The notes under the pieces were generated by a model, which did no database searches, was not told where the DNA came from, and saw nothing but the letters and a program-made list of their open reading frames with translations. A stretch of 64,000 bases of DNA from an uncultured delta proteobacterium (GTDB lineage Bacteria; Desulfobacterota; Binatia; DP-6), in assembly GCA_963815115.1 (NCBI GenBank), contig CAWFFN010000008.1:160001-224000 (forward strand), read 5' to 3'. Positions 5,281-27,412 of this stretch are shown here, one piece after another. Position numbers and translations under genes: made by a program. Each line of letters starts with the position of its first letter. The first letter of the stretch is position 1.

Positions 5281-6516
5281 ATGTTCCTCGCTCCTGGCCA
5301 GGCCGCGGAGGTCCGCGAGCGCTTCGGCACCCCGTGCTACGTCTACGACCGGCGGACGCTCGAGAGCGCGGCGCGCACCGCCCTCGCCTTCCCGGCCCCG
5401 TTCGGCTTCACCCTGCGCTACGCGATGAAGGCCAACCCGAACGCCGCCATCCTGCGCATCTTCCGCGCCTTCGGGCTGCACCTCGACGCGTCGAGCGACC
5501 ACGAGGTGGAGCGCGCGCTGCGCGTCGGCGTGCCGGGCGGCACCATCCAGCTCACCTCGCAGATGCCGTCGCGCCGGCTGGAGGAATTCGTGGCGCGCGG
5601 CGTGCGCTACAACGCCTGCTCGCTGCACCAGCTCGAGCGCTTCGGCCAGGCGTTCCCGGGCCGCGACGTGACCATCCGCGTCAACCCGGGCCTGGGCAGC
5701 GGCTCGACCAACCGGACCAACACCGGCGGCCCGGGCTCCAGCTTCGGCATCTGGCACGAGGCCCTGGACGAGGCCAAGGCCGCTGCCGCCCGCCACGGTC
5801 TCCGGGTGAGCGGGCTGCACACCCACATCGGCTCCGGCACCGATCCGGCGGTGTGGAAGCGCGTGGCACGCATGAGCCTCGACATCGCGGCGCGCCTGCC
5901 GGACGTCGCCACGCTCAACCTCGGCGGCGGCTTCAAGGTGGCGCGCGTCGCCGAGGAGCGCTCCACCGACCTGGCGGACATCGGTACGCACGTCCGCCAG
6001 GAGCTGCTCGAGTTCCGCGATCGCAGCGGCCGGACGCTCCACCTGGAGATCGAGCCCGGCACGTATCTCGTCGCCAACGCCGGCTGCATCGTCGCCACCT
6101 GCATCGACGTCGCCGATACCGGCGCGGAGGGCTACCGCTTCGCGAAGCTCGATACCGGCATGACGGAGGTCACGCGCCCCTCGCTGTACGGCGCGCAGCA
6201 TCCGATCGACGTGCTCGCCGAGCGCGAGAGCGCCCGGGTCGTCTTCGTCGGACCGTGCTGCGAGTCGGGAGACGTGCTCACCCCGGCGCCCGGCGACCCG
6301 GAGGCGCTGGCGCCACGGCTGGTGCCGCGCCCGGCGATCGGTGACCTCGTCCTGATCGGCGGCGCCGGCGCCTACTGCGCCGCCATGTCCACCATCAACT
6401 ACAACTCGTACCCCCAGGCTCCCGAGGTGATGCGCGAGCTCGACGGCTCGCTGCGGCTCGTGCGGCGCCGCCAGACGCTCGAGCAGCTGCTCGCCAGCGA
6501 GGTGGTCGACGATTAG
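5281..6516 (+). CDS. lysA: Diaminopimelate decarboxylase (fold-type III PLP enzyme)
   Basis: GTPCYVYD, YAMKANPN (PLP Lys), HTHIGSG, LNLGGGF, EPGTYLVA, GPCCESGD, GAGAY. Confidence 0.85.
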   Translation: MFLAPGQAAEVRERFGTPCYVYDRRTLESAARTALAFPAPFGFTLRYAMKANPNAAILRIFRAFGLHLDASSDHEVERALRVGVPGGTIQLTSQMPSRRLEEFVARGVRYNACSLHQLERFGQAFPGRDVTIRVNPGLGSGSTNRTNTGGPGSSFGIWHEALDEAKAAAARHGLRVSGLHTHIGSGTDPAVWKRVARMSLDIAARLPDVATLNLGGGFKVARVAEERSTDLADIGTHVRQELLEFRDRSGRTLHLEIEPGTYLVANAGCIVATCIDVADTGAEGYRFAKLDTGMTEVTRPSLYGAQHPIDVLAERESARVVFVGPCCESGDVLTPAPGDPEALAPRLVPRPAIGDLVLIGGAGAYCAAMSTINYNSYPQAPEVMRELDGSLRLVRRRQTLEQLLASEVVDD

Positions 6517-6892
6517 CAGCTCCCGGCACGCTCCGGCCCGCCGGGGCAGCTTTGCGGCGCGCACCGGGACCGCCACGACGGCCTCGGGACGGGTCCGGCG
6601 GGCGACGGCGCGTGCACTCTGCGCCGGCCATTTCCCGGGCGATCCGCTGCTCCCCGGGGCCGCCCTCGTGGCCCTCATGGCCGAGCTCGGTGCGACGCTC
6701 GGCGGCCCGCGTGCCCGGCTGGTGGCGGTCGAGCGCAGCGTCTTCCGCCGTCGCGTCGGTCCCCATGCCGGCATCGTCGTCAGTGCCCGCCGGGTGCGGG
6801 CCGTGAAGAGGGGATTCAGCGTCCACGCCACCGTGACGGGCAGGACCGACGTCGCGGCGTGGGCGATCCTGCGCTTCGAGGATGCGCGGTGA
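6512..6892 (+). CDS. Hot-dog 3-hydroxyacyl-ACP dehydratase subunit (FabZ/ApeI-like); start uncertain
   Basis: In-frame GHFPGDPLLPGA motif lies upstream of the called GTG at 6668. No ATG/GTG/TTG precedes the motif in frame. Confidence 0.6.
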   Translation: MSSSRHAPARRGSFAARTGTATTASGRVRRATARALCAGHFPGDPLLPGAALVALMAELGATLGGPRARLVAVERSVFRRRVGPHAGIVVSARRVRAVKRGFSVHATVTGRTDVAAWAILRFEDAR

Positions 6893-7281
6893 CGCTTCCG
6901 GCGCCCGGCGTCATGCTGAGACACCGGCCGCCGGCCCTGCTCCTGGGGACGGTCGACGCCCTCGTGGACCGCACGCTGGCCTGCACGGGGATCGACGCGG
7001 GGCGCTGGCCGTGGCCTCGCCTCCTGGAAGGCACCGCGCAGACGGCCGGACTGCTCGCGGGGCTTCAGCCCGGGGGCCCGGGCCGCGATGCGGTGATCGC
7101 CGAGTACCGCGACGTCTCTCTCGGCGTCGAGCGCCATCGCGGGCGCGTCCGCTTCGAGGCACGCCTCGAGCGCCGGCTGGCGCACTTCTGGCGCTGTCGC
7201 TGCGAGGCCCTCGCGGCCGACGGCCGCGTCCTGCTCGCGTCCCGGGTCACCCTGGCCCGCGCGCCGCAGCGCGAGGCGTGA
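6889..7281 (+). CDS. Hot-dog dehydratase subunit (ApeP/FabZ-like)
   Basis: GTGA overlap with the previous gene. LRHRPPALLL and LLEGTAQTAG match the FabZ-type PHRxPxLL / ExxAQ motifs. Confidence 0.7.
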   Translation: MTLPAPGVMLRHRPPALLLGTVDALVDRTLACTGIDAGRWPWPRLLEGTAQTAGLLAGLQPGGPGRDAVIAEYRDVSLGVERHRGRVRFEARLERRLAHFWRCRCEALAADGRVLLASRVTLARAPQREA

Positions 7282-8456
7282 GCATGGCCTCGTTCGCCGT
7301 CGAGCCGCTCGACCCGCGCGCCTACGAGCGCCTCGCGGCCGCGGGTCTGGCGCCGGATCCCTTCAACCCGGCGCAGCATCGCAGCTGCGAGCTGGTGGAG
7401 CGCTACGCCGTCGACACGGCGCTCGACCTGTGCAGCCGGCTGGGCGTCCTCGAGCTGCTCCACGCGCCGCGCTCCGTCCAGGCGCTGTGCGCGGCGCGCG
7501 GCTTCCTGCCGGCCTTCGAGCGACCGCTGCGCTGGCTGCTCGAGCGTCTCGTGGCGGCGGACGTGCTCGCGCGCGCCGGTACGAGCTACGAGCTCTCCGG
7601 ACCACCCCGGGAGCCGGCGCTCGCGGCGCTGCGCGCGGAGGCGCTGGCGGACGACCCGTCGTATGCGCCCGCCTACGACCTGCTCGACGCCGTGGCGGCG
7701 CTCTACCCCGGCGTCGCCCGGGGCGAGGTGCAGGCCGAGCGCGCGCTGTTCCTCCGCGCCCGTCTCTGGGCGGCCTACTTCGACAACGCGAACGGGTACT
7801 ACGCGCTGAGCAATCGGGTGGCCGCGCGCGCGGCGGCGGTCCGGCTCGGCAGCGGCGGCCAGGTGCTCGAGGTCGGCTCGGGCCTCGGCAGCGCCACGGA
7901 CGCGCTCCTCGCCGAGCTGCGGGCACGCGGCGCGCTCGGGCTGGTGACCGCCTTTCGTGCGACCGAGCCAGCGCTCTTCTTCCGCCGGCGCGCCCAACGG
8001 ACGCTCGAGCAGTCGTGGCCCGACGTCGCGCTCACCTTCGATGCCCTCGACGTCAACCGGCCGTGGGCGGCGCAGGGCGTCGAGCCGGGAACGTATGCGC
8101 TCGTCTGGGGCGTCAACGTGTTCCATCTCGCCCGTCACCTCGACGACGCGCTCCGCGAAGCCCGCGCCGCGCTCGTCCCTGGCGGCTGGCTCGTCGTCGG
8201 CGAGGGCATGCGACCCGGGCCCGGCGTCCCGGTCGGCGCCGAGCTGCCCTTCCAGCTCCTGGACAGCTTTCACGACGTCGTGCTCGATCCCGCCCTGCGA
8301 CCGACGTCGGGGTTCCTCACTGCCGAGCTGTGGCAGGATGCGCTCCGGCGCGCGGGCTTCGACGACGTCGCGCTCTTCCCCGACGTGATCGAGCTGCGCG
8401 AGAGCTATCCCGGATTCGTCGCGGCGGCGGCCTGCGGCCGGCGCCCGCGGCGCTGA
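7278..8456 (+). CDS. Stand-alone SAM-dependent methyltransferase resembling PKS C-methyltransferase domains
   Basis: VLEVGSGLGSAT SAM motif; GVNVFHLA..ALVPGGWLVVGE (cMT NVxH...PGGxLxxxE); LTAELWQDALRRAGF. GTGA-coupled to the dehydratase. Confidence 0.75.
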   Translation: MSMASFAVEPLDPRAYERLAAAGLAPDPFNPAQHRSCELVERYAVDTALDLCSRLGVLELLHAPRSVQALCAARGFLPAFERPLRWLLERLVAADVLARAGTSYELSGPPREPALAALRAEALADDPSYAPAYDLLDAVAALYPGVARGEVQAERALFLRARLWAAYFDNANGYYALSNRVAARAAAVRLGSGGQVLEVGSGLGSATDALLAELRARGALGLVTAFRATEPALFFRRRAQRTLEQSWPDVALTFDALDVNRPWAAQGVEPGTYALVWGVNVFHLARHLDDALREARAALVPGGWLVVGEGMRPGPGVPVGAELPFQLLDSFHDVVLDPALRPTSGFLTAELWQDALRRAGFDDVALFPDVIELRESYPGFVAAAACGRRPRR

Positions 8457-10486: not shown

Positions 10487-11482
10487 CTACGCGGGGCGTC
10501 TCGCGGCGACGGACGTCCGGATGGCGCGCGCCAGGAGATAGCCGAGTCCCGGCATGACCCAGAGGAGCTCCCGCAGCCGGACCGCGAGTCCGACCGCGAA
10601 GCCCACGTCGGCGGGGTATCCCAGCATGGAGAACAGCCAGAGCTGGCTCCCCTCGAGCACCCCGATGCCGGCGGGGACCGGCATCGAGTGCACCGCCCCG
10701 GTGGCGAAGATCGCCGCCACCACGGCCAGCGGACCCGAGGGCAACCCGAACGCCGACAGCAGGAGCCAGTACTCCAGCAGGACGAGCAGGTGGCCCGCCA
10801 CGCCGAGCGCGAAGGCCAGTCCCACGCGGCGCGGCTGCGCGGCCAGGGCCACCACGTCGCCCTCCGCGGCCCCGATCGTTCCCATGCGCGCACGGATCGG
10901 CCCGAACCGATCGAGCCCGAAGCCGCTCGCGACCGCGGTCACCACTCCCTCACCCCGTCGCAGGCGCCGGATCATGAACCCGACGCCGACGACCAGCCCG
11001 ACCGCGGCCGCACACAGCGTGAAGGCGGCCCCGCGCAGCGCCGGCACCCCCTGCTGCACCAGGACGCTGCCGAAGACGGCGGCGAAGACCGAGCCGCTTC
11101 CCATGTCGAGGGTGCGGTCGACGGCGACGCTGGCGATCGCCTGCGGCGTCGGGACCCCGTGCTGGGCGGCGAGATAGGCGCGCAGGGGCTCGCCGCCCAT
11201 CCGCCCGCTCGGGATCAGCGTCGACAGGCTGTGCCCCGCGGCCCGGCAGGCCATGAGGGTGCCGAGGGCCACGTGCGACCCGAGCGCCGTCAGCAGCACA
11301 CCCCAGCGCCGGCCGCAGGTCGCGAACTCCGCCGCGATGACGAGCACGAACGCCGCCAGCAGCGGCGCCGACGGCGCCCGCGCGAGCAGTGACAGGGCGG
11401 GCTCACCGTAGCGGTGCAGCGCCCACGCGAGCGCGGCGGTGCCCACCACCAGATTGGTTCCGAGGACGACGGTGGCGCGCAC
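10487..11482 (-). CDS. Lysylphosphatidylglycerol-synthase TM / flippase-like membrane protein (UPF0104)
   Basis: Multiple TM segments; RW..LL, PSGRMGGEPLRAY, VDRTLD, PVPAGIGVLEG, R-ELLW. Confidence 0.8.
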   Translation of the reverse strand: MRATVVLGTNLVVGTAALAWALHRYGEPALSLLARAPSAPLLAAFVLVIAAEFATCGRRWGVLLTALGSHVALGTLMACRAAGHSLSTLIPSGRMGGEPLRAYLAAQHGVPTPQAIASVAVDRTLDMGSGSVFAAVFGSVLVQQGVPALRGAAFTLCAAAVGLVVGVGFMIRRLRRGEGVVTAVASGFGLDRFGPIRARMGTIGAAEGDVVALAAQPRRVGLAFALGVAGHLLVLLEYWLLLSAFGLPSGPLAVVAAIFATGAVHSMPVPAGIGVLEGSQLWLFSMLGYPADVGFAVGLAVRLRELLWVMPGLGYLLARAIRTSVAARRPA

Positions 11483-11495: not shown

Positions 11496-12667
11496 TCAGG
11501 ACGAGCCGGCGGGCTCGAAGCAGTCGATCGTCGCGCCGGCCTCGAGGTACTCGCCCAGGATCGCCTCGATGGGCCGGTGGTCGAGGACCTCGAACTGGCT
11601 CGCCTCGAGGTCGAAGCGCGCGCCGCTCTCGGTGTACGGCGCGACGCCCGGAGAGCCGGGCGTGAGGACCCCGATCACCGGCACGAGCCGCCGTTGCATG
11701 CGTGCGGGCTCGCGCGTCGAGATCACCACCTTGGCCCGCGGTGCGGCGAGCGCCAGGACGGTGACCAGGCGGCACAGCCGATCGTCGTCGACGCCGGCGG
11801 GATACGGCGTCCCGCTCGCCCGGCGCAGCCGCGGCAAGCTGACGTAGACCTCCATGCCGCGCGCCTCGAGGTGGCGGACGTGCGCGAGCAGGGCGAGCAG
11901 CTCCCAGGCGACGTCGGAGTTGAGGCCGAGGAGCACTCCGGGGTTCGCCACCCACATGCCGGCATCGCAGGCGCGATCGAAGTTCAGGAGCCGCCGCGCG
12001 TAGTCGCTGCGGGGGTTCTCCGGGTCCGTGCCCATGAAGCGTCCGTAGACCTCCGGCTGGTAGGTCTCCTGGAAGGTGCACATGGTGAGGCGCGGCGCGA
12101 CGCGGCCGTCCCCGATCCTGCGCGACCCCGTCGAGGAGGAGGTCGTAGTCGGGGGCGTCGAGCGAGCCGATGTTGACCAGGACGTGGCGGAAGCCGCGCG
12201 CCAGCGCCGCCCGCAGCGCCGCCGCGGCGCGCTCGATCATCGCCTGCCGTCGTGCGCCGTGGCGGTACTCGCCGCTCAGGATGGCCACGGCGCGCAAGCC
12301 ACGACGATGGAGAATGTCGAGCTGGGATTCCACCGTGGTCTCGTCCGCCGACTCCCGGACCAGCTCGGCATTGGAGCGCCGCATGCCGCACATCAGGCAC
12401 GCCGCGTCGCACTCGTTGGTGATGTAGAGCGGAGAGAAGGTCTCGAAGCGGAGGCGATCGTCGCTGCGTCGCGCACGGGCGAGCGCGATCAGCTCGTCGG
12501 TGCCGACGTCGGTCGGCGAGGAACAGCGTCGCGGCCGCCTCGTCATCGAGCGTCGCTCCCGCGCGCGCGAGGTCGGCGATCGCCCTGCCCTCTCCTGCCT
12601 CGGCACGCGCGGTCGCGCGTGCGCGCATCGCGCCGAGCGTCTCGGTCTCGAGGCGGAACCAGGCCAT
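11496..12667 (-). CDS. Radical SAM aromatic amino acid lyase, NosL/NocL-like (ThiH/HydG family); about 2 frameshifts
   Basis: Assembled from three overlapping ORFs: TFSPLYITNECDAACLMC, LSGEY, NIGS, MCTFQETY, NPGVLLGL, SLPRLR, ISTRE, TPGSPGVAPY, SQFEVLDHR. Confidence 0.8.
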
Positions 12668-12682
12668 GGCGGCGGACGTATA

Positions 12683-14156: not shown

Positions 14157-14324
14157 CGAGCCGAGACTCCGACTCGGCTCGGGACGCGGAGCGAGAATGA
14201 AGCGCGATGACCCGTGCGCACGTCGTACCCGCGCCGGCTTCGCCGGCCGCGGCATGGCGTGCGCGCGATCCACCGACCGCCACGTCCTCGCCCCGCTTTC
14301 GACCCGAGACGGAGTCTCCCGTCG
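14157..14324 (-). repeat. Three-hairpin REP/MITE-like element, copy 1
   Basis: Terminal hairpins cgagccgagactccgactcggctcg and cgacccgagacggagtctcccgtcg. 14229-14259 is the exact reverse complement of 21347-21377. Confidence 0.75.
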
Positions 14325-16668: not shown

Positions 16669-16682
16669 CGCGCGGCCGCACG

Positions 16683-18958: not shown

Positions 18959-19036
18959 CCGGCTGACTTATCGGAGCGCTGGAGGCGCCTCAAGATACGT
19001 TGTCACGGGGCGCGAAGCGGCGTAGGGCTCTCCCCC

Positions 19037-21385
19037 ATGGACACGATCGCGACGCACTATCGCACCTGCTCCCTGTGCGAGGCCACCTGCGGGCTCGAGA
19101 TCCGGACTCGCGGCCCGGAGATCGTGAGCATCCGGGGCGACGAGGCCGACCCGTTCAGCCGCGGCTACCTGTGCCCCAAGGGGCCGGCGCTGAAGCACCT
19201 GCACGACGATCCCGATCGCCTGCGCGAGCCGATGATCCGTCGCGGCGCCACCTGGGAGCGGGTCGGCTGGGGCGAGGCGTTCGCCGAGATCGACCGCCGG
19301 CTGCCGCCCATCATCCGCACGCACGGGCGCGACGCGGTCGCCGTCTATCTCGGCAACCCGTCGGCGCACCTCCTCTCCGCTCATGCTGTACCCGCGCGCG
19401 CTGCTGCGCGCCTCGGCACGCGCAACCTCTTCTCGGCCAGCACCGTCGACCAGATGCCGAAGCAGGTCGAGCGCGGGCTCATGTTCGGCACGCGCGCTGA
19501 GCGTGCCGGTGCCCGACCTCGACCGCACCGTCGTTCCTGCTCGTCCTCGGCGCCGATCCCGTGGTGTCGAACGGCAGCCTGATGACGGCGCCCGACGTGA
19601 AGGCGCGCCTGCGCGCCATCCGCGCACCGCGGCGGCAAGCTGGTGGTCATCGACCCGCGCCGCTCGCGCACGGCGGAGGAGGCCGACGAGCACCACTTCA
19701 TCCGCCCGGGCACCGATGCGCTGTTCCTCTTCGCCCTCGTCCACACGCTGTTCGCGGAGAACCTCGTCCGGCTCGGCCGCCTCGCACCGCACGTGGCCGG
19801 CGTCGAGGCGGTGGAGCGCGCTGGCGCGCGAGTTCACGCCCGGAGGCCGTCGGCGCCGCCTGCGGCATCCCGGCGGACACCATCCGCCGGCATCGCACGC
19901 GCGCTCGCCGCGCGCCGAGTCGGCCGCGGTCTACGGTCGCGTCGGCACGTGCCAGCAGGAGTTCGGCACCGCTGGCGAGCTGGCTCGTCGACGTGCTGAA
20001 CGTGCTCACCGGCAACCTCGACCGGCCCGGCGGCGCGATGTTCACCAAGGCGGCGGCCGGCGCCAGCAACACGCGCGGCGAGCCCGGACGCGGCAAGGGC
20101 GTCCGCTTCGGACGGCGCGACGAGCCGCGTGCGCGGGCTGCCCGAGGTCTTCGGCGAGCTGCCGGTCGGCTGCCTCGCCGAGGAGATCGAGACGCCGGGC
20201 GAGGGCCAGATCCGGGCGCTCATCACCATCGCCGGCAATCCGGTGCTCAGCACGCCGAACGGCGCGCGGCTGTCGGCCGCGCTCGGCTCGCTCGAGTTCA
20301 TGGTGAGCCTCGACATCTACCTGAACGAGACGACGCGCCACGCGGACGTGATCCTGCCGTCGCTCTCGCCGCTCGAGTCGTCGCACTACGACCTCGGCGC
20401 TCTGGCAGCTCGCCATCCGCAACTACGCAAACTACTCGGCGCCCGTCTTTTCTCCGCCGTCGGGTCGGCCGACCGACTGGGAGACCGTCCTGCGGCTGAC
20501 CGGCATCGTCATGGGTCAGGGACCCGACGCCGACACGGACGCGCTCGACGACTTCGTCGCCCTCCAGCAGGTGGAGAGCGCCGTCGGGGCGGCGGGCTCC
20601 TGCGTGCAGGGACGCGCACCGGCCGAGCTGATGGCCGCGCTCGCCCCGCGACGCGGCCCGGAGCGCCTGCTCGACCTGATGCTGCGCACCGGGCCGTACG
20701 GCGACGCATTCGGCGCGCGGCCCGACGGGCTCTCCCTGCGGCGCTCGAGGCGACCCCGCACGGGATCGACCTGGGCGCGCTCGCGCCGCGCATCCCCGAG
20801 GTCCTGCGCACCCGCTCGGGCATAGATCGAGCTGGCGCCGCGCCGAGATCACCGCCGACGTCCCCCGGCTGCGCTCGCGTCTCACGCGGCCGGAGGGCGG
20901 CATCGACGCTCGTCGGCCGCCGGGACCTGCGCTCCAACAACTCCTGGATGCACAACATCGAGCCGCTCGTGCGCGGCGAGACCGCGCTGCACCCTGTGGG
21001 TGCATCCCGACGACGCCGCGCGCCTCGGGCTCGCCGACGGCGCCGCCGGCGCGCGTGCGCTCGCGCGCCGGGCGCCTCGACGTGCCGGTGGAGGTCACCG
21101 ACGCGATCATGCCCGGCGTGGTGAGCATGCCGCACGGCTGGGGCCACGACGCGCCCGGGATGCGCGTTGCGCGTCGCGTCCGCCAACGCCGGCGTGAACA
21201 GCAATCTGCTGGCCGACGAGCTGGCGATGGATCCGCTGTCCGGCAACGCGGTGCTGAACGGCATCCCCGTAAGCGTGTGTCGAGCCGAGACCTCGTCTCG
21301 GCTCGAAGGGGAAGGCGAGCGTGTGGCGTCCGGTCCCTCAGGCGACCGCCATGCCGCGGCCGGCGAAGCCGGCGCGGCAAAATAG
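19037..21385 (+). CDS. Molybdopterin-dependent oxidoreductase with N-terminal Fe4S4 motif; many frameshifts
   Basis: RTCSLCEATCG..LCPKG, DPDRLREP, YLGNP, GNPVLSTPN, DIYLNETTRHAD, SNNSWMHN, PGVVSMPHGWGH, NGIPV spread across frames. Confidence 0.8.
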
Positions 21386-21481: not shown

Positions 21482-21895
21482 TTACCGGGGCTGGGCCAGC
21501 GTGAGCCGCCCTTCGGCGCACAGCCGCCCGTCGACCAGGGCGCGGCCGCGCAGCTGCGTCGCGGCCTGGAAATGGCGCAGCACCTCGACCTCGATGCGGA
21601 GGACGTCACCGACCCGCACCGGATCGAGGACCCGGAAGTCGTCGACGGCCGCAAGGTAGCCCGGCTGGGGCGCGTCGTCCTTCAGGGCCGAGAGGAGCGC
21701 GCCCCCACCCTGGGCGAGGGTCTCGAGGAGGAAGGCCGCCGGCAGCGTGCCATCCGCTGCCACGCAGGGATCCGAGGCGGCCACGTGCTTCAGGAAGACG
21801 CCGCAGCGGTCGCCGATCTCGAGCACCCGGTCCAGGAGCAGGAAGGGGGCGGCGTGCGGAAGGCGGGGAAACGGAGTCCGCAGCTCGCTCATCAC
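21482..21895 (-). CDS. 3-hydroxyacyl-ACP dehydratase (FabZ/ApeP-like)
   Basis: LPHAAPFLLLDRV, LLETLAQ, GYLAAVDDFRV..PVRVGD. Confidence 0.85.
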   Translation of the reverse strand: MMSELRTPFPRLPHAAPFLLLDRVLEIGDRCGVFLKHVAASDPCVAADGTLPAAFLLETLAQGGGALLSALKDDAPQPGYLAAVDDFRVLDPVRVGDVLRIEVEVLRHFQAATQLRGRALVDGRLCAEGRLTLAQPR

Positions 21896-23013
21896 GCTGC
21901 CTCTAGCCGGAGCGGCCGACACGCGCCACCCCGGGCGAGACCGTCGACCAGCACCCGGCGGACGGGCATCGCGCGCGCCGCGCCCGTGACCACGTCGAGG
22001 CCGCGGGCCGCCCCAGCTGGCCAGCCGATCGTGGGCGGCACGAGCGCGTGCGACATCGCCAGCGCGGCCGCCGCCACGGCGAGCGCTCCCGCGGCACCGA
22101 AGCTGCCCGTCGTGCCGCGCGGCGCCGTCACCGCCACCGGACGCCCGGCGAACGCGCGCGCGAGCGCCTCGGCCTCCAGCCCGTCCAGCACCACGTCGCC
22201 GTTCGCCGCCGCGACCACGAGGTCGACGTCGGCGGCGAGCGGTGCGAGGCGGCGCGCCAGCTCGCCCGCGTCGGCGGGCCACCCGTGAACCGGGGCCGGG
22301 ACACCGAAGCCTGCGTGCGGCACGAGACGCGCGTAGCGGCGCGCGCCCCGACGAAGTGCGCGCGCCGACGACTCCAGTACGAGCACCGCGGCGCCTTCGC
22401 CCGGAGTCGCGACGGCGCCCGACGCACGGCGCGCCGCGCGCTCGAGGCCCGGAAGGGCCGTGGCGAGCTCGTCCGCCGCGCCCGCCAGGCAGACCTCGGC
22501 CGTACCCTCGCCGACCTGTCGCGCTCCCCACCCGATCGCCGCCTCCCCCGAGGCCTCCTGCTCGGTCACCATCGCCGACGGTCCCGTGATGCCCAGCTCG
22601 ATCGCCAGGTAGCTGAGCGGCGCGTTCATCACCAGGTTCGGGAAGAGGAGCGGGTTGCCGGTGCCGCGGTCGAAGATGCGATCGAGAAAGGTGATCGTCT
22701 CCTCGACGTTACCGAATGCGGAGCCCAGCGCGAGCGCCGTGCGCGGCGGCGCCAGTGCCTCGGGCTCGAGACCGGCGTCGGCCAGGGCGAGCCGTGCGGC
22801 CGCCAGGGCCAGCAGCGACGTCCGATCGATCCGGCGTCCCTGCGCCGAACGAACCCAGCGGCGCGCCTCGAGGCCCTCCACCCGCGCCGGCGCGGCGGAT
22901 TCTCCGGGTGCGCGAGCGCCGCGGCCTGCGACGACCGCCTCCCAGAACGGCTCCACGCCGACACCGAGCGCGCTCACCACGCCGATGCCGGTCACGGCCA
23001 CGTCACCGATCAC
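21892..23013 (-). CDS. Non-catalytic ketosynthase-like chain-length factor
   Basis: KS fold (VAVTGIGVVSALG, NPLLFPNLVMNAP, GEGAAVLVLE). Catalytic Cys replaced (TEQEASG); His motifs absent. Confidence 0.8.
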   Translation of the reverse strand: MIGDVAVTGIGVVSALGVGVEPFWEAVVAGRGARAPGESAAPARVEGLEARRWVRSAQGRRIDRTSLLALAAARLALADAGLEPEALAPPRTALALGSAFGNVEETITFLDRIFDRGTGNPLLFPNLVMNAPLSYLAIELGITGPSAMVTEQEASGEAAIGWGARQVGEGTAEVCLAGAADELATALPGLERAARRASGAVATPGEGAAVLVLESSARALRRGARRYARLVPHAGFGVPAPVHGWPADAGELARRLAPLAADVDLVVAAANGDVVLDGLEAEALARAFAGRPVAVTAPRGTTGSFGAAGALAVAAAALAMSHALVPPTIGWPAGAARGLDVVTGAARAMPVRRVLVDGLARGGACRPLRLEAA

Positions 23014-24230
23014 GCGTCTCGTCCCAGCACGAGGGTGACGTTGTGCCCGCCGAAGCCGTACGAGGAGGTGAGTGCAATCCCGAGCGCCTGCCGGCGGCCC
23101 GCGGCCGGCACCAGGTCGAGGTCGCTCCACGCCGGATCGGGATCACGCAGCGTCGCCGTCGGCGGCAGGAGCGAGCCGTCGAGCGCGAGCACCGTGGTGA
23201 CCGCTTCGACCGCCCCCGCGGCACCGAGGCAGTGGCCGAGCTGCGACTTGGTGGAGCTGACGGGAACGCGCGGCAGGCGGGCTCCGAAGACGGCGCGCAG
23301 CACGCGCACCTCGACCTCGTCGTTCTGCCGCGTGCCGGTCCCGTGGGCGTTGACGTAGTCGACCGCGTCGGGCGGCACCGCCGCCGCGTCGAGCGCGCTG
23401 CGCACCGCGGCCAGCGCCGCGCGGCCCTCGGGATCGGGAGCGGTCACGTGGTGGGCGTCGGTCGTCGTGCCGTGCCCGAGCACCCGCGCGATCACGCGCG
23501 CGCCGCGCGCCCGCGCGTGCGCCGCGTCCTCGAGCACGAGGGCAGCCGCCCCCTCCCCCAGCGTGAGGCCGGCACGGTCACGGTCGAAGGGCCGGCAACC
23601 CTCCGGGTCGAGGGCCTGGAGGGCGTCGAAGCCTGCATGCGTGATGCGGCAGAGCCCGTCCGTCCCCAGCGCGATGGCCAACGCGAGCGTCCCCGACGCG
23701 ACGGCCCACGCGGCCTCGGCGATCGCCAGCGCGCTCGACGAGCATGCGGTGGAGAACGTGGCGCGCGGCCCGTGGATGCCGAAGGCCTGGGCGATCGCCG
23801 CCGCGCTGGTCGACAGCGGCGTCCCGAGCAGACGCGACAGCCGGTAGTGCCGGTCCTCCCCCGAGCGGTGGCGGCGATAGGCCTCTTCCGTCTCGGCCAT
23901 CCCGCCCACGGTGGCGCCCACGAAGATCCCCGCCGCTTCGAGGCGCTCGGTCTCGAGGCCAGCCTGCCGGTACGCCTGCTCGACGGCAGCGAGCGCGAAC
24001 CGGTCGGGACGCGACAGGCGCCGCACCGTCGCGGGCGGCAGCAAACCGAACGCCGCCACGGGCGGAGCGAGCTCCCGTACCTCGGCCGCGAGATGACAGC
24101 GGCCGCCGTGCGGAAACCGCGTCAATGGACCGACCGCGCAGCGGCCATCGGCGAGGCCGGCAGCGAGCGCCGCCACGTCCGCGCCGAGCGCCGTGATGGC
24201 GCCCACGCCGGTCACCGCGACCTGCCGCAC
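23010..24230 (-). CDS. Beta-ketoacyl-ACP synthase (FabF-like)
   Basis: STACSSS, NAHGTGT, KSQLGHCLGAAG, SYGFGGHN. Confidence 0.93.
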   Translation of the reverse strand: MRQVAVTGVGAITALGADVAALAAGLADGRCAVGPLTRFPHGGRCHLAAEVRELAPPVAAFGLLPPATVRRLSRPDRFALAAVEQAYRQAGLETERLEAAGIFVGATVGGMAETEEAYRRHRSGEDRHYRLSRLLGTPLSTSAAAIAQAFGIHGPRATFSTACSSSALAIAEAAWAVASGTLALAIALGTDGLCRITHAGFDALQALDPEGCRPFDRDRAGLTLGEGAAALVLEDAAHARARGARVIARVLGHGTTTDAHHVTAPDPEGRAALAAVRSALDAAAVPPDAVDYVNAHGTGTRQNDEVEVRVLRAVFGARLPRVPVSSTKSQLGHCLGAAGAVEAVTTVLALDGSLLPPTATLRDPDPAWSDLDLVPAAGRRQALGIALTSSYGFGGHNVTLVLGRDA

Positions 24231-24238: not shown

Positions 24239-24499
24239 CTACGGCTGGCGCTCCGCAACGATGAAATCGACCAGCGACCGCACCGAGGCAAAGGCTCGCT
24301 TGCCCACCTCCTCGTCCGGAATGGAGACCCGGAATCGATCCTCCACCAGCACGACGAGCTCGAGCGCGTCGATCGAATCGAGACCCAGCCCGTCGCCGAA
24401 GATGGGCGAGTCCTCGGGGATGTCGCTCGGCGGACGGTCGAGCCGAAGCCCGGTCACCAGGAGCTGCTTCACCTCCGCGGCGAGCGCGTCGCGATCCAT
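24239..24499 (-). CDS. Acyl carrier protein (aryl-polyene/ladderane type)
   Basis: 86 aa, acidic; IFGDGLGLDSIDALELV phosphopantetheine Ser motif. Confidence 0.92.
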   Translation of the reverse strand: MDRDALAAEVKQLLVTGLRLDRPPSDIPEDSPIFGDGLGLDSIDALELVVLVEDRFRVSIPDEEVGKRAFASVRSLVDFIVAERQP

Positions 24500-24510: not shown

Positions 24511-25269
24511 TTAGAGCATCGTGAGACCGCCGTCCACGTGGAGGGTGGTCCCGGTCAGGTACGAGGCCGCCGGTGAGGCGAGAAAGAGAACGGCGCTGGC
24601 GATCTCGTCCGGCTCTGCGAAGCGGCCGAGGGGAATCTGACGTTCGAGATCCCGGCGCTCGGCCTCGGCCAGCTCGCGGATCAAGCGGGTGTCCACGAAG
24701 CCGGGGGAGACGGCGTTCACCGTGATGGCGTAGCGAGCGACCTCGCGCGCCAGCGACTTGGTGAGCGCGACCACTCCTCCCTTCGCCGCCGAATAGGCGG
24801 CGGCGCCTTCCTTGCCGAAGAAGGCTGCCGGCGAGACGACGTTGACGATGCGTCCCCACCGTCCGCCGATCATGCCGCGGAGCGCCGCCTTGCTGCACAG
24901 GAAGACGCCCGTCAGGTCGACGTCGAGCACGCGCCGCCAGCCGCTCTCGGGCAGCATCATCAGGAGGCCGTCGTGCGTCACCGCGGCGTTGTTCACCAGC
25001 ACGTCGGGCGCGCCGCCGAGCGCATCACGCAGCGCGCCGAAGAGCCGGCTCACGGCCTCGGCATCGGCGACGTCGGCCTGCACGGCGTGCGCCCGCGCGC
25101 CGGTGGCGCGTAGCGCGACCAGGGTCTCGTCGGCCTCGGCGTCGTCCTCGTCGCGCGAGTAGTTGAAGGCGACGGCCGCGCCCGCACGCGCAAACCCGAG
25201 CGCGACGGCTCGGCCGATACCGCGCGAGCCGCCGGTGACGAGCACGCGATGGCCGGCGAGCGCGCTCAC
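24511..25269 (-). CDS. fabG: 3-oxoacyl-ACP reductase
   Basis: TGGSRGIG, NNAA, YSAAK, VNAVSPGFVDT, VDGG. Confidence 0.9.
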   Translation of the reverse strand: MSALAGHRVLVTGGSRGIGRAVALGFARAGAAVAFNYSRDEDDAEADETLVALRATGARAHAVQADVADAEAVSRLFGALRDALGGAPDVLVNNAAVTHDGLLMMLPESGWRRVLDVDLTGVFLCSKAALRGMIGGRWGRIVNVVSPAAFFGKEGAAAYSAAKGGVVALTKSLAREVARYAITVNAVSPGFVDTRLIRELAEAERRDLERQIPLGRFAEPDEIASAVLFLASPAASYLTGTTLHVDGGLTML

Positions 25270-26228
25270 ACGGGACCCGGACCGGCCGCCACGAGCGCCC
25301 CGACGTGTCCGCTCGGGCAGACGTCGAGCACCAGGAAGGGGGCCGGGGTGGCGCCGGCAAGCGCGGCGACGAGCGCCAGCGGACAGGCCGCGGCAAAGGT
25401 CTCGCCGTACGCCGCCGAGGGATGCTGGATGCGCGGCTGCGTCCCGTCGAGGACGGCGTACAGCGCGCGCCGAGTCCGCTCCGCGGTGCTCGGCGCATCC
25501 CGCACGATGACCAGCGCCAGGTCCGTCTGCCGTACGCCCGCGTCCGCCAGCGCTCCCTCGATGGCGGACTGCACGCCCGCCGCTGCGCGATCGCGCTCGG
25601 GCGTGAACCCGGCCGCGTGTCCCATGATCCGGCCCCGAACCACCGCACCACGCCGGCGTGCCGCCAGGACCGGCTCGAGCACGACGATCGCGGCGCCGTC
25701 CCGCGGCGGCGCCTCCCCCATCGCGAGGCCGCCGTCCGCGAGCCAGCGCTCGAGGGTCGCGTCGCAGGCGTCCATTCCGCCGGCGACCATGGCGTCTGCC
25801 CGCCCGGTGGCGATCAGGTCCGCCGCGTGCGCGATCGCCAGCAGGCCCGCCGCACCGCCGGCGGTGAGGGTCACCGCCGGACCACCCAGGCGGAATCCGA
25901 TGCCGACCTCTCCCGCGGCCGCGTTCGAGACCGTCGCGGCGAAAAGCCGCGGGCTCGCCGCCTTGGGACCGTCGGCCGCGACGCGCCGCTGATACGCGGC
26001 GTTGGTGAGAAAACACCCGAAGGCGGTGCCGAGCGCCACGCCGACGCGGGGACGCGGAGCACCATCGGTCACCGCGAGCCCGGCCTCCTCGAGCGCGCGC
26101 CCGGTCGCGGCGAGGGCGAGCTGGGTCACGCGCTCTGCGCGCACGGCCCGCGCACGGATGGCATCGGGTAGCTCCCCGAGCTGGCCGTCGACGGCGGCCG
26201 CGGCGCCGGTGATCGCGATCTCCGTCAT
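25266..26228 (-). CDS. Second non-catalytic ketosynthase-like chain-length factor (short)
   Basis: GVALGTAFG, SPRLFAATVSNAAAG; LTAGGAAG lacks the catalytic Cys. Confidence 0.78.
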   Translation of the reverse strand: MTEIAITGAAAAVDGQLGELPDAIRARAVRAERVTQLALAATGRALEEAGLAVTDGAPRPRVGVALGTAFGCFLTNAAYQRRVAADGPKAASPRLFAATVSNAAAGEVGIGFRLGGPAVTLTAGGAAGLLAIAHAADLIATGRADAMVAGGMDACDATLERWLADGGLAMGEAPPRDGAAIVVLEPVLAARRRGAVVRGRIMGHAAGFTPERDRAAAGVQSAIEGALADAGVRQTDLALVIVRDAPSTAERTRRALYAVLDGTQPRIQHPSAAYGETFAAACPLALVAALAGATPAPFLVLDVCPSGHVGALVAAGPGPV

Positions 26229-27412
26229 GCGCGTCCCAGGACCAGGGCGGTGTTCGCGCCGGCGAAGCCGGACGAGGTCGAGATCGCCACGCGCACATCA
26301 CCCCGCCGCGCCTCGCCGTGCACCAGATCGAGGCCCTCGCAGGCGGGATCGGGATGCTCGAGTCCGACCGTAGGCGGGATGCACGCCTCGTCCAGCACCC
26401 CGCTGCACAGCACCGCCTCGAAGGCGCCCGCCGCGCCCAGGGTGTGGCCGATCGCTCCCTTGATCGAGTTCACCGGCACCGGACGGTCGCCGAAGAGCCG
26501 CCTGAGCGCGCGCGCCTCCATGGCGTCGTTGAAGGGGGTGCCGGTGCCGTGCGCGGAGACGAAGTCCACCGCGTCGGGATCGACGGCGGCATCGTGCAGA
26601 GCGGCCAGCACGGCCCGGACCAGGCCGCTGCCCTCGCGATCGGGAGCCGTCATGTGCGTGGCGTCGGCCGCTGCGCCGGTTCCGAGCACGCGCGCGCGCA
26701 CGCGCGCGCCGCGACGAGCCGCGCGCGCCGCTTCCTCGATCACCAGAACGGCGGCGCCCTCGCCGAGCACGAGGCCGCGCCGGTCGCGGTCGAAGGGACG
26801 CGCGACGTCGGCGGTCGCGTGCAGGCAGTTGAAGCCCGCAACCACGAACCGGCACAGGAGATCGGCGCCGCCCGCGAGGACCACCTCGGCGCGTCCGGCA
26901 CGCACCCAGTCCGCCGCCAGCGCCACCGCCGCGCTCCCGGAGGCACAGGCGAGCTGCGGCGTCACGACCGGACCGCGCGCGCCGATCGCCTCCGCCACGC
27001 GGGCGGCGGGCGCGTAGTACGGGATGCGCTCGAGGGAGCCAGGGGACGGGCTCCCCGCGGCCGCCGCGGCGTCCCACGTCTCGAAGATCCCCATGCCGCC
27101 GAGCGTGGTGCCGAGCGCCACGCCGACCCGGCCAGGCTCGAGCTGCTCGGGCGAGATCCCCGCCGCTTCCAGCGCCTGGGCTGCGGCCGCGAGCGCGAAA
27201 GCCCCCGCCCGGTCGGGGTCCCGATCGTCCTGATCGGTCACCTCGGCCGCGCTCGCCGGCTCGAGATCGTCGGCCGGGAATCGCCGGATGGGGGCGACCG
27301 CGGAGCGGCCCGCAATCAGGCCGCTCCAGAACGCCCCGACGGTGCGCCCGAGCGGGGACACCACCCCGCAGCCGGTGATGACAGCGGCACGTGCAGATCC
27401 AGCCAAGACCAC
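26225..27412 (-). CDS. Beta-ketoacyl-ACP synthase (FabF-like)
   Basis: QLACASG, SAHGTGT, KGAIGHTLGAAG, SSGFAGAN. Confidence 0.92.
   Translation of the reverse strand: MVLAGSARAAVITGCGVVSPLGRTVGAFWSGLIAGRSAVAPIRRFPADDLEPASAAEVTDQDDRDPDRAGAFALAAAAQALEAAGISPEQLEPGRVGVALGTTLGGMGIFETWDAAAAAGSPSPGSLERIPYYAPAARVAEAIGARGPVVTPQLACASGSAAVALAADWVRAGRAEVVLAGGADLLCRFVVAGFNCLHATADVARPFDRDRRGLVLGEGAAVLVIEEAARAARRGARVRARVLGTGAAADATHMTAPDREGSGLVRAVLAALHDAAVDPDAVDFVSAHGTGTPFNDAMEARALRRLFGDRPVPVNSIKGAIGHTLGAAGAFEAVLCSGVLDEACIPPTVGLEHPDPACEGLDLVHGEARRGDVRVAISTSSGFAGANTALVLGRA

Follow-up and report, generated by a model that had tools for sequence, protein, structure and literature searches.

The window (the whole 64,000-nucleotide stretch of DNA that was analysed) holds the right-hand two thirds of a biosynthetic cluster of about 47 kb that is conserved in Candidatus Binatia and is a variant of the aryl-polyene and ladderane-like kinds of cluster. 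An indole-bearing, unusual membrane lipid may be the product of this conserved, fatty-acid-like polyketide cluster of an uncultured soil bacterium. Three related Binatia genomes (G003, G006 and G017) keep the same gene order, so the arrangement is not due to chance, and all the genes named in an earlier note on this DNA are present at or near the same coordinates.

The reading that we favour, tentatively and at a little short of evenly balanced, is that of a single pathway, in which (i) two KS/CLF heterodimers, a ketoreductase (KR), an acyl carrier protein (ACP), a FabZ-like dehydratase (DH) and an ApeI/ApeP-like pair would extend an ACP-bound acyl chain, (ii) B12 radical SAM enzymes, a methyltransferase and a flavin-dependent halogenase encoded upstream would decorate the product, (iii) LpxL-like acyltransferases would attach the chain to a membrane lipid, (iv) a NosL-like enzyme would turn tryptophan into an indole carboxylate, which a co-transcribed PaaK-like ligase would adenylate and link to the pathway, and (v) a flippase-like protein would move the finished lipid across the membrane. 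As for the acceptor of the ligase, the indole acid might be joined as an ACP-bound starter, as the earlier note had it, which is plausible if rather improbable, or it might cap the lipid, or a phenol, through an ester or amide bond, which we think slightly less probable still.

The chain-building genes had been described as a coupled KS-CLF-KR-ACP-KS-CLF-DH operon at 21482-27412, and all seven are indeed present on the minus strand (Pfam; NCBIfam on the orthologues), with one further gene just upstream of KS1:

27471..27932, minus strand: small conserved protein whose start resembles a signal peptide and which has a Gly-rich hydrophobic stretch
26225..27412, minus strand: KS1 (Pfam), Cys-His-His intact in the alignment
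25266..26228, minus strand: CLF1 (KS-like), Cys position Gly and both His lost in the alignment
24511..25269, minus strand: ketoreductase, FabG-like SDR (adh_short_C2, E 2.6e-61)
24239..24499, minus strand: acyl carrier protein (PP-binding) with a GLGLDSIDALE motif; NF006617 64 bits, cutoff 70
23010..24230, minus strand: KS2 (Pfam), Cys-His-His intact in the alignment
21892..23013, minus strand: CLF2 (KS-like, without active site), ketoacyl-synt domains, Cys position Glu and both His lost
21482..21892, minus strand: FabZ-like 3-hydroxyacyl-ACP dehydratase; FabZ NF000582 69 bits, cutoff 113

By ORF coordinates, neighbouring genes either share bases or directly adjoin; the stop of KS1 overlaps the start of CLF1, and the stop of CLF1 the start of KR. 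The small protein has no Pfam match; four orthologues were aligned, and its position is kept in G001, G003, G006 and G017. The top PDB matches of KS1 are 9s5h_B (250 bits), the ketosynthase 6kxd_A (246 bits) and FabF (about 240 bits), and those of a KS2 orthologue are FabF proteins (252 bits). A KR orthologue scores 247 bits as FabG and 208 bits as FlxB, each under its cutoff (NCBIfam), and the DH carries the motifs LPHAAPFLLLD and LLETLAQ. No enoyl reductase is encoded among the scanned ORFs of the window and the upstream part of the cluster, so the chain, a putative polyene, is expected to remain unsaturated or hydroxylated. The presence of just one ACP in the window part of the cluster counts against the single-pathway reading.

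At 6512-8456 the frame plot gives three successive coding frames, in keeping with the two hot-dog genes and a methyltransferase proposed before. A single 539-aa frame across this region was also considered and is ruled out, as the plot has three frames for the window and likewise for G006, a cleaner assembly.

6512..6892, plus strand: hot-dog dehydratase A, short, ApeI/FabZ-like, with the catalytic-His motif HFPGDPLLPG (frame plot, translation, alignment)
6859..7281, plus strand: hot-dog protein B, with LRHRPPALLL and LLEGxAQ motifs and without the HFP motif (frame plot)
7281..8456, plus strand: SAM-dependent methyltransferase; Methyltransf_12 31 bits (cutoff 30), Methyltransf_23 24.7 bits (cutoff 27)

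Orthologues of A match FabA-like (9/9) and ApeI-like (6/9) models, all below threshold, and its N-terminus is unsettled, since the first ATG/GTG/TTG start of the frame in the window does not come before 6668. None of ten B orthologues has a Pfam match, and B is predicted with confidence to adopt a hot-dog fold (AlphaFold2 pLDDT 86.9), its Foldseek matches being FabZ, amxFabZ, hot-dog thioesterases and the ApeI:P chain 6qsr_B (rank 15, E 7.8e-5, TMq 0.73). Together A and B are predicted to form a heterodimeric pair: the modelled complex scores 0.89 against 0.01 for the best control, a mark attained by 116 of 157 complexes of solved structure and by 2 of 215 mismatched pairs, with 100% contact agreement between runs and a partner pLDDT of 88, although this pass may stem from likeness to solved hot-dog dimers. 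The start of the methyltransferase was set by frame plot and ORF translation; its NCBIfam matches are weak throughout, and while it can be called a methyltransferase, the label ‘PKS-type C-methyltransferase’ of the earlier note is not established.

The description of the cluster as aryl-polyene-like holds for its parts and fails for several hallmarks. Specifically, it shares with aryl-polyene systems two KS/CLF pairs, ACP, KR, an LpxL-like acyltransferase, a methyltransferase and the predicted heterodimeric hot-dog pair, whereas a thioesterase, a glycosyltransferase, LolA/MMPL export genes and a lone KS were not found in the cluster.

The putative aromatic branch lies at 10487-14078, where the expected PaaK-like ligase, NosL-like radical SAM enzyme and flippase-like protein were all identified (Pfam; NCBIfam on the orthologues), the flippase-like gene closing the operon:

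12683..14078, minus strand: PaaK-like adenylating ligase (AMP-binding, Pfam)
11496..12680 (start approximate), minus strand: NosL-like radical SAM aromatic-amino-acid lyase, frameshifted fragments aligning to intact orthologues
10487..11482, minus strand: flippase-like membrane protein, LPG_synthase_TM/HpnL-like (PF03706, E 8.7e-30)

Two of these genes are broken in the window, by one surplus base at each of three sites: 12121 and 12511 in the NosL-like gene and 13294 in the ligase. Short-read contigs have one base fewer at each site (for 12511 and 13294, contigs of a relative about 94-95% identical only), so the frameshifts are probably assembly errors and both genes are probably intact in reality.

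The NosL-like protein has the cluster motif CDAxCxMC, and its identity is borne out by a match to NosL (258 bits, E 1e-75) far ahead of those to HydG and ThiH (75-79 bits) in the PDB. Its orthologues score 262-278 bits for TIGR04158, 137-142 for ThiH and 92-94 for HydG (NCBIfam); as even 278 bits is under the equivalog cutoff of 400, the reaction may differ from that of NosL, and 3-methylindole-2-carboxylate, the acid named in the earlier note, would be one candidate product. In the STRE motif the protein keeps the Arg that binds the substrate. Two markers of tryptophan versus tyrosine lyases, as given in PMC9046217, are ThiH R306, typical of tyrosine lyases, and strand beta-8; at the first, the protein has Gln, as in NosL, and through the second it aligns with NosL free of gaps.

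Orthologues of the ligase score 138-141 bits as BagE/FevW, 108-115 as DVU_1553, 96-97 as PaaK and 79-85 as FlxY, all under the cutoffs, and its PDB matches are 9s3l (148 bits), AjiA1 (142 bits) and the PaaK-like ligase 6siw (129 bits). The nearest named families (BagE/FevW, PaaK, FlxY, AjiA1 and 6siw) act on aromatic acids, and the enzyme falls in an aryl-acid-adenylating branch, in agreement with the earlier note. The flippase-like protein scores 65 bits for TIGR00374 (cutoff 43.2) and 80 bits for HpnL (cutoff 196).

The earlier note had proposed that separation of the NosL-like and KS genes in related genomes would speak against a joint pathway; in all eight related genomes with both orthologues on one contig, 9-17 kb lie between the NosL-like gene and KS1, so the joint pathway is not refuted in this way. 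Among 64 other loci with NosL-like homologues, the gene usually adjoins a PaaK-like ligase (within 600 nt in 38/64, and in 31 of the 50 with room upstream) and a flippase-like protein (within 600 nt in 33/64), and KS/CLF, KR, the ladderane-type B12 radical SAM gene and the halogenase are often nearby. Where at least 8 kb is available on both sides (24 loci), KS/CLF genes occur in 14, at least one of KS, KR and a TIGR04072-like gene in 18, and halogenase-like genes in 16. No cluster gene stands beside the NosL-like gene in 6/64 loci; in the two examined (L067 and L073) its neighbours are a methyltransferase and a 4HBT thioesterase.

These loci bear on the thought that the ligase, NosL-like enzyme and flippase form a self-contained lipid-modification module, a mere neighbour of the PKS-like operon, in which the ligase would put the NosL-derived acid on the head group of a phospholipid, to be exported by the MprF-type flippase domain. 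The three genes of the triad do recur together (in 32/64 loci neither ligase nor flippase is more than 600 nt from the NosL-like gene), LPG_synthase_TM is the Pfam name for the family of the lysyl-phosphatidylglycerol synthase flippase domain, and three loci (L058, L077 and L084) have the NosL-like gene and ligase without KS genes. However, co-localisation with KS, KR and B12 radical SAM genes holds in rearranged and distant loci, a distant subgroup (about 50% identity) having CLF-KS-KR-B12 radical SAM-CLF-KS directly adjoining the NosL-like gene, and presence of the NosL-like gene tracks that of the TIGR04072-like gene (31 related genomes, which are non-independent samples: both in 17, neither in 11, discordant in 3). 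We regard pure head-group chemistry as very unlikely.

The cluster extends beyond the window on its upstream side, where it encodes a halogenase of the CndH type, a TIGR04072-like radical SAM enzyme, an MIO lyase and another LpxL-like acyltransferase. The halogenase, the ladderane-type B12 radical SAM enzyme and the MIO ammonia-lyase/aminomutase were absent from the earlier note. The flavin-dependent halogenase has the WxWxIP motif (GWFWYIPL) and matches CndH (3e1t) with 344 bits, features that fit an electron-rich aromatic substrate.

An aromatic acid might also come from the MIO enzyme, which has the ASG motif, is syntenic in G000, G003, G006 and G017 and occurs in 13/64 loci. This conserved member of the cluster could supply an aromatic starter, as in flexirubin, which counts against the single-pathway reading. 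In a flexirubin- or xanthomonadin-like logic its product would prime the KS/CLF enzymes, the halogenase (CndH/CmlS-like) would decorate, and the NosL-like triad would be accessory, for example esterifying on a second aromatic piece, as in bagremycin or the dialkylresorcinol ester of flexirubin. Consistent with this are the scores of the MIO enzyme as FlxA TAL (393 bits) and tyrosine aminomutase (458 bits; also its top PDB match, 360 bits) and the closest characterised relatives of the ligase (BagE, AjiA1 and the 6siw ligase), which are ester-forming. Furthermore, G001 keeps the MIO enzyme, halogenase and KS operon and lacks the triad. In that slot G001 has an ANL ligase and a carrier protein that look like a starter-loading module, which speaks for the single-pathway reading; against that reading, both G001 and G014 keep the KS operon with no NosL-like gene, so the PKS part works without the NosL-like enzyme. 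Against the flexirubin-like logic, histidine ammonia-lyase is the family for which the MIO enzyme scores highest (534 bits, exceeding the subfamily cutoff of 524), and Ser-His stands at its substrate-switch position, so its product may be urocanate. In addition, the sole ligase seen in the cluster of this genome is the NosL-coupled one, and in the distant subgroup the KS genes are adjoined by the NosL-like gene and not by the MIO gene. This logic appears unlikely.

Equally unlikely, in our judgement, is a ladderane-like or polyunsaturated-hydrocarbon FAS II, in which KS/CLF, the TIGR04072-like enzyme and the PaaK-like ligase would produce an unusual membrane-lipid fatty acid and activate it, the NosL-like chemistry having nothing to do with an indole acid as building block. 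The TIGR04072-like gene, 3.6 kb upstream of the first base of the window, scores 342 bits (cutoff 360) and its group-2 relatives exceed the cutoff (397-408 bits); the top solved match of KS1, 9s5h_B, is a heterodimeric FabF-like entry, and that of the ligase, 9s3l, a ‘phenylacetate-CoA ligase’. Support also comes from the make-up of the ladderane-like FAS II clusters of Kuenenia and Desulfotalea, which, in the excerpts of Rattray et al. (PMC2649909), comprise FabF paralogues without active sites, radical SAM enzymes and a PaaK/F390-like ligase proposed to act on a fatty acid, polyunsaturated hydrocarbons having been found in Desulfotalea. A PaaK-like ligase is thus already known from such clusters, whereas a NosL-like gene is not reported there in those excerpts (PMC2649909). 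On the other side, no phytoene-desaturase-like gene is present in the scanned ORFs of the window and upstream part, the tight coupling of the ligase to the NosL-like gene, together with the halogenase and MIO enzyme, indicates an aromatic component, and the Trp-type markers of the NosL-like enzyme favour an aromatic amino acid as substrate.

The remaining genes include a B12 radical SAM gene, an LpxL-like acyltransferase and an ASPIC-UnbV protein, all noted before and all seen by Pfam:

5065..6516, plus strand: DAP-decarboxylase-like (LysA-like) protein (Pfam Orn_Arg_deC_N); TIGR01048 264 bits, cutoff 298
14197..16596, plus strand: FG-GAP repeat protein and UnbV_ASPIC protein (Pfam), an in-frame TGA (16027-16029) between them
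16653..18044, plus strand: B12-binding radical SAM enzyme ‘B12a’ (Radical_SAM and B12-binding, Pfam)
18002..18958, minus strand: LpxL-like (lysophospholipid/lipid A family) acyltransferase (PF03279, E 2.3e-24)
18990..21290, plus strand: molybdopterin oxidoreductase, frameshifted in the window, matching its G006 orthologue in alternating frames

An FG-GAP homologue is a frequent neighbour of the NosL-like gene (15/64 loci), and a B12a homologue occurs in as many (15/64). B12a has no close named family, its top NCBIfam scores (BchE 89 bits, HpnJ 86 bits) being far under the cutoffs, and the acyltransferase also scores under the cutoffs (NF005919 56 bits, NF006487 51 bits). The molybdopterin oxidoreductase (804 aa in G006, with Molybdop_Fe4S4, Molybdopterin and Molydop_binding domains) is a variable insert between DH and acyltransferase, found in 5/64 loci and not at the same spot in G017. 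The LysA-like gene is the sole TIGR01048 match in the whole genome, is syntenic in close relatives only, and is probably the housekeeping lysA, embedded in the cluster and outside the pathway.

The genome of the window (G000; 6.9 Mb, 70% GC, 12 contigs), whose nearest relatives are MAGs titled Candidatus Binatia or 'uncultured delta proteobacterium', leaves nearly every reading frame open at such GC (in the window's first 32 kb, 160 ORFs are 70 aa or longer), and genes were therefore called from third-position GC, Pfam and NCBIfam matches, and comparison with three related genomes (G003, G006 and G017). Called in this way, every gene listed in the earlier note is present in the window (ORF coordinates, Pfam, NCBIfam), and the in-window B12 radical SAM, LpxL-like acyltransferase and FG-GAP/UnbV_ASPIC genes are as described there (Pfam). 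The observation is confirmed and extended, and its interpretation is in part supported. What emerges is a genuine and widespread cluster variant, not yet characterised, in which aryl-polyene (APE) and ladderane-like features meet a NosL-type enzyme. It spans roughly 47 kb, reaching upstream past 6512 and beyond the window start, and its features include the following (the window is G000:C8:160001-224000; bare coordinates are window positions).

Features of the cluster
27412-21482, minus strand: KS1, CLF1, KR, ACP, KS2, CLF2 and FabZ-like DH (Pfam; boundaries overlap or abut)
18002-18958: LpxL-like acyltransferase (PF03279; best NCBIfam match below cutoff)
14078-10487, minus strand: triad of PaaK-like ligase, NosL-like radical SAM protein and flippase-like membrane protein (Pfam, NCBIfam)
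G000:C8:155090-156442: TIGR04072-like 'lipid biosynthesis B12-binding/radical SAM protein' (342 bits, cutoff 360)
G000:C8:148138-149742 (L027 8138-9742): MIO ammonia-lyase/aminomutase
Between G000:C8:145000 and the window start: SRPBCC protein
Between G000:C8:145000 and the window start: B12 radical SAM enzyme of 634 aa
Between G000:C8:145000 and the window start: second LpxL-like acyltransferase (Pfam; best NCBIfam match below cutoffs)
Between G000:C8:145000 and the window start: flavin-dependent halogenase (GWFWYIPL, a WxWxIP motif; CndH 3e1t 344 bits, CmlS 308 bits)

In the KS operon, alignment finds Cys-His-His intact in KS1 and KS2, and the Cys position occupied by Gly in CLF1 and Glu in CLF2, both without the histidines (the CLF reading uses the window rows only; the G006 rows, partly out of frame and Arg-rich, were excluded). 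The ACP carries the motif GLGLDSIDALE, and the FabZ-like DH carries LPHxxPFLLLD and LLETLAQ. The solved structures matching KS1 are nearly equal in score, namely the heterodimeric FabF-like 9s5h_B (250 bits), the ishigamide ketosynthase 6kxd_A (246 bits) and FabF (about 240 bits), and the best PDB matches of KS2 are FabF; these scores do not separate the APE, ladderane and FabF groups, and therefore no subfamily call is made from sequence. The cluster shares with the highly reducing ishigamide type II PKS the logic of KS/CLF, KR and DH without an enoyl reductase, and since the match of KS1 is no better than that to ordinary FabF, no specific affiliation follows. Directly upstream of KS1, a small conserved protein (27471-27932; signal-peptide-like start, Gly-rich hydrophobic segment, no family match) is found in each of the five Binatia genomes compared (G000, G001, G003, G006 and G017). 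In G006 the operon is closely preceded by an additional B12 radical SAM C-methyltransferase, KedN5-like and 881 aa long (L013 4831-7473; 266 bits, cutoff 700), which has no counterpart at that position in the window.

The region 6512-8456 had been read as two hot-dog dehydratases and a methyltransferase, and three genes are indeed there, visible as three successive coding frames in the window and in the cleaner G006 assembly (frame plot). A single 539-aa 'DH-DH-MT' protein at 6837-8453 was rejected as an open-frame artefact of 72% GC DNA with the three genes beneath it (frame plot); the tblastn query 'DHDHMT' is this artefact frame, and its matches chiefly reflect the methyltransferase part. 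The third gene encodes a Methyltransf_12 protein (Pfam, 31 bits, cutoff 30). Hot-dog A carries the catalytic-His motif HFPGDPLLPG, and its orthologues match FabA-like (9/9) and ApeI-like (6/9) Pfam models, always below threshold; none of 10 hot-dog B orthologues matches any Pfam model, ApeP-like included. The predicted fold of hot-dog B is a hot-dog (pLDDT 86.9) resembling FabZ, anammox FabZ and hot-dog thioesterases; the ApeI:P heterocomplex does not appear among the matches before rank 15, with its chain B (6qsr_B; E 7.8e-5, TMq 0.73). Hot-dog A and B are adjacent small genes with complementary motifs, and their predicted complex scores 0.89 (best of three controls 0.01; contacts agree 100% between runs; partner pLDDT 88). 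Of 157 solved complexes 116 attain this mark, as do 2 of 215 pairs that were mismatched; the high score may stem from likeness to solved hot-dog dimers.

Other genes lie among the blocks of the cluster. A block of about 9 kb separates the upstream cluster genes from a lysA-like gene in G000, with a guanylate-cyclase-domain gene upstream of the window and alkaline phosphatase, beta-helix and sulfatase genes within 1-5336, and in 8457-10212 the methyltransferase and flippase-like genes are set apart by an FGE-sulfatase and folP (DHPS 256 bits, cutoff 163). The inserts of 1-5336 and 8457-10212 are absent from these spots in G003, G006 and G017, where the same blocks stand in the same relative order without sulfatase inserts. 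The lysA-like gene itself (5065-6516; DAP-decarboxylase-like, TIGR01048 264 bits against a cutoff of 298) is the sole TIGR01048 match in the genome, which is rated 100% complete, and is therefore probably housekeeping. FG-GAP and UnbV_ASPIC domains usually form one protein; in the window an in-frame TGA followed immediately by ATG (16027-16032) lies between the two, and G003 has a stop at the same junction.

The NosL-like gene is single-copy in the genome, the window holding the sole copy, and it is interrupted there (see below). Its intact orthologues, of approximately 386-394 aa (database homologue lengths), score 262-278 bits against TIGR04158 (3-methyl-2-indolic acid synthase), 137-142 against ThiH and 92-94 against HydG (NCBIfam), and the PDB match to NosL (E 1e-75, 258 bits, about 355 residues) is likewise far above those to HydG and ThiH (75-79 bits), which upholds the NosL-like identity given to this radical SAM protein. 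The TIGR04158 scores are below the curated equivalog cutoff of 400 bits, and therefore the enzyme is not an equivalog by the NCBI standard; the two fragments in the window score 159 and 92 bits. According to Amara et al. (PMC9046217), two primary markers select tyrosine over tryptophan in these lyases, and the tryptophan-type markers used here, taken from the same paper, are (i) a residue other than Arg where ThiH has R306 and (ii) no one-residue beta-8 insertion. In alignment, the Binatia protein keeps the substrate Arg of the STRE motif, shares with NosL a Gln at the R306 position (Arg in ThiH and both HydG structures), and aligns with NosL without gaps from STRE through GSPxVAPY, the beta-8 region included. 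These NosL-type markers make tryptophan the likely substrate, or at any rate one other than a phenolate-bound tyrosine.

The NCBIfam matches of the partner ligase run from BagE/FevW (138-141 bits) through DVU_1553 (108-115), PaaK (96-97) and FlxY (79-85) to F390 synthetase, all far below cutoffs (520 bits for FlxY, 800 for BagE), and its best solved relatives are 9s3l ('phenylacetate-CoA ligase', 148 bits), AjiA1 (142) and the PaaK-like ligase 6siw (129). Its best named relatives are PaaK-like aryl-acid ligases from benzoxazole and bagremycin pathways (6siw, AjiA1, BagE/FevW), at scores that stay far from the family cutoffs (BagE 141 of 800). We take AjiA1, the 6siw enzyme and BagE to adenylate aromatic acids and form esters, and a capping role therefore has a place beside ACP loading. 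Tentatively, and a little short of calling it probable, we favour a pathway in which the NosL-like enzyme would turn tryptophan into an indole acid, and the adjacent ligase would activate this acid for incorporation into the lipid-bound product of the cluster. The earlier note had cast this acid as the starter unit that primes the PKS, a version that we rate as somewhat unlikely; a version with the acid as an ester or amide cap is unlikely.

The interruptions of these genes would most simply be assembly indels. The NosL-like gene lies in two frames split at about 12121, with its N-terminus garbled beyond about 12511, and the ligase gene is split at about 13294. At 12121, Logan contigs of public soil and peat sequencing runs have exactly one base fewer, as seen in an X5 contig of about 99% identity (2 other letters in 151) and an X2 contig of about 95% identity; at 12511 and 13294 one base fewer is found, each time in one X2 contig of about 94-95% identity, so that the support at these two sites comes from a relative only. 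Contigs of runs X1 and X3 span none of the three sites. Further split genes in the window are a TPP enzyme (28740-30390) and a molybdopterin oxidoreductase (18990-21290).

The NosL-like gene is widespread. A scan of the genome collection with the NosL-like alignment returned 64 loci (46-100% identity), all in MAGs or unnamed assemblies labelled by their depositors as Binatia, Myxococcota, Deltaproteobacteria, Thermodesulfobacteriota, Spirochaetaceae and others, and at least 759 environmental proteins match at E <= 1e-20; proteins and loci alike are all from uncultured bacteria. In tblastn searches with the cluster proteins, the 64 loci gave matches to the ligase (41), the flippase-like protein (43), KS/CLF (21), KR (19), the TIGR04072-like protein (30), the halogenase-like protein (23) and the MIO enzyme (13). 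The contigs are in many cases short; where the sequence extends 8 kb or more to each side (24 loci), the ligase is matched in 17, the flippase-like protein in 17, KS/CLF in 14, the halogenase-like protein in 16, and any of KS, KR or the TIGR04072-like protein in 18. In a subgroup of about 50% identity (e.g. L059, L068, L090), the NosL-like gene directly abuts CLF-KS-KR-TIGR04072-like-CLF-KS, with the ligase, flippase-like gene, acyltransferase and halogenase within 8 kb. No query matched in two of the 24 loci (L067, L073), where the NosL-like gene adjoins a methyltransferase and a 4HBT thioesterase.

Among 31 related genomes, 18 have the NosL-like gene and 19 the TIGR04072-like gene (both in 17, neither in 11); the discordant genomes are G007 (NosL-like alone, a fragment at a contig end) and G012 and G029 (TIGR04072 alone). 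These genomes are kin, and therefore the association is given descriptively, without a statistical test. As for the physical linkage on which the earlier note had staked its proposal, a distance of 9-17 kb separates the KS1 orthologue from the NosL-like gene in all eight genomes that carry both on one contig (G002, G003, G004, G005, G006, G010, G013 and G017), and seven further genomes have both on separate, mostly short contigs. That the triad is a self-contained head-group module merely adjoining the PKS is, to our mind, improbable.

Two genomes of high completeness, G001 (95%) and G014 (99%), keep the KS operon and have neither the NosL-like nor the TIGR04072-like gene, and G001, of the same genus as the window's genome (L092 11400-18562, G001:C19), also keeps the MIO enzyme and the halogenase, with no triad. 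The slot of the triad in G001 is filled by a polysaccharide deacetylase, a standard ANL ligase, a 446-aa protein, a carrier protein, a UbiE-like methyltransferase and a second halogenase-like flavoprotein. This swap suggests that the slot supplies a variable building block, and it makes the PKS-like core independent of the NosL-like enzyme. An aromatic starter could instead come from the MIO enzyme, with the triad in an accessory role, as the retention of that enzyme in G001 would allow. The enzyme scores highest with the HAL subfamily (534 bits, cutoff 524), followed by tyrosine aminomutase (458) and FlxA TAL (393); among solved structures it matches a tyrosine aminomutase best (360 bits), and its RSHATG presumably sits at the substrate switch. 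We consider a MIO-derived starter doubtful.

The first comparison is with aryl-polyene clusters, in which the KS-CLF pair is ApeO:ApeC and the dehydratase ApeI:ApeP. The cluster has in common with APE, flexirubin and xanthomonadin clusters the KS/CLF heterodimer logic (KS with inactive CLF), ACP, KR, a predicted two-protein hot-dog dehydratase, an LpxL-like acyltransferase, a methyltransferase, an adenylating ligase, a nearby halogenase and the lack of an enoyl reductase. APE clusters also have thioesterase, glycosyltransferase, LolA-like and MMPL export genes; none of these was found among the ORFs scanned here (the window and 20 kb upstream), and no enoyl reductase either. It also differs in having two KS/CLF pairs and no lone KS, no unpaired ApeR-type KS being found from G000:C8:140001 to window position 36000, and, unlike APE and flexirubin clusters, in its PaaK-like ligase with the low FlxY score, while the ApeI/ApeP Pfam models find its hot-dog proteins below threshold or not at all. 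Its extras over APE are three B12 radical SAM enzymes, the NosL-like enzyme and the flippase-like protein. Ape gene names other than ApeO, ApeC, ApeR and ApeI:P (the last from the title of PDB entry 6qsr) are used as general background; ApeO, ApeC and ApeR are named in PMC8358021. From gene content, the absence of an enoyl reductase would give the product polyene character, and lipid anchoring and flipping may likewise be expected.

The second comparison is with the ladderane-type FAS II clusters of anammox bacteria and Desulfotalea psychrophila, whose typical parts are a TIGR04072 B12 radical SAM enzyme, amxACP, amxFabZ and FabF2/FabFmut. Shared features are a FabF-like KS with inactive partner, a dedicated ACP, a FabZ-like DH, a TIGR04072-like B12 radical SAM enzyme, a PaaK/F390-like ligase and SAM methyltransferases, and the product is unproven in both. 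PMC2649909 describes, for Kuenenia and Desulfotalea, SAM radical enzymes, a phenylacetyl-CoA ligase/F390 synthetase-like gene and FabF paralogues without active-site residues, and gives polyunsaturated hydrocarbons, not ladderanes, as the Desulfotalea product. A 2026 preprint (10.64898/2026.05.19.726425), which mentions neither PDB code 9s5h nor 9s3l, shows the two anammox FabF proteins to form a KS/CLF-like heterodimer, and according to a 2026 review (PMC13459092) the enzymes that install the ladderane rings are still unidentified. The host here is an aerobic-soil-type Binatia MAG, in contrast to the anammox bacteria of the ladderane system, and the TIGR04072 score of G000 is just under the cutoff (relatives 334-357 bits, two class-level relatives 397-408). 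A phytoene-dehydrogenase-like gene was not found in the cluster, whose sole FAD enzyme found is the WxWxIP halogenase, and the additions over ladderane-type clusters are the NosL-like enzyme, the halogenase, the MIO enzyme, the LpxL-like acyltransferases and the flippase-like protein. A ladderane-like or polyunsaturated lipid pathway with a ligase that acts on a fatty acid would account for the shared core and less readily for the NosL-like enzyme, the halogenase and the MIO enzyme, and we hold it to be unlikely.

Compared with NosL/NocL of thiopeptides (nosiheptide), the Binatia enzyme is alike in fold family, cluster motif, substrate Arg, the Gln in place of the tyrosine-lyase Arg, the lack of a beta-8 indel and an adenylating enzyme encoded alongside. 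It is unlike them in its sub-equivalog score, its PaaK-like partner ligase, the lack of thiopeptide precursor or maturation genes, and a lipid/PKS-like context in Binatia, Myxococcota-labelled and other MAGs. Neither APE nor ladderane-like clusters have been described with a NosL-like enzyme, and searches of an open-access collection returned no paper with both NosL and aryl polyene and, in looser form, none on such a combination, in line with the earlier note, whose author knew of no described cluster with this set of genes. To our knowledge, NosL chemistry (tryptophan to 3-methylindole-2-carboxylate) has so far been confined to thiopeptide antibiotics, and here a close NosL relative belongs stably to a polyketide cluster of the lipid type. 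At its fullest, the proposal would be a novel membrane-lipid class in Binatia, Myxococcota-labelled and other uncultured lineages, in which a NosL-type indole carboxylate, possibly halogenated and methylated, primes KS/CLF, and the unsaturated chain is reworked by ladderane-type B12 radical SAM enzymes and attached to a lipid by LpxL-like acyltransferases; we regard this as possible, if rather doubtful. If true, it would be (i) the first NosL-type role outside thiopeptides and (ii) a tractable, widespread handle on TIGR04072 enzyme function. We know of no demonstration of the long-suspected ladderane role of this B12 radical SAM family, and ladderane-type enzymology could become testable in a system outside anammox bacteria whose product would be aromatic, possibly UV-visible and halogen-tagged. 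It would also tell what the Binatia, an abundant soil lineage, make as pigment or membrane lipid.

Rfam gave no match in the window, and an IS110-family transposase gene lies at 60484-61830. Outside the window, a second cluster on another contig of the genome (G000:C5:378000-398100) has at least six KS-like and four B12 radical SAM genes and is without a NosL-like gene, because the window has the only copy.
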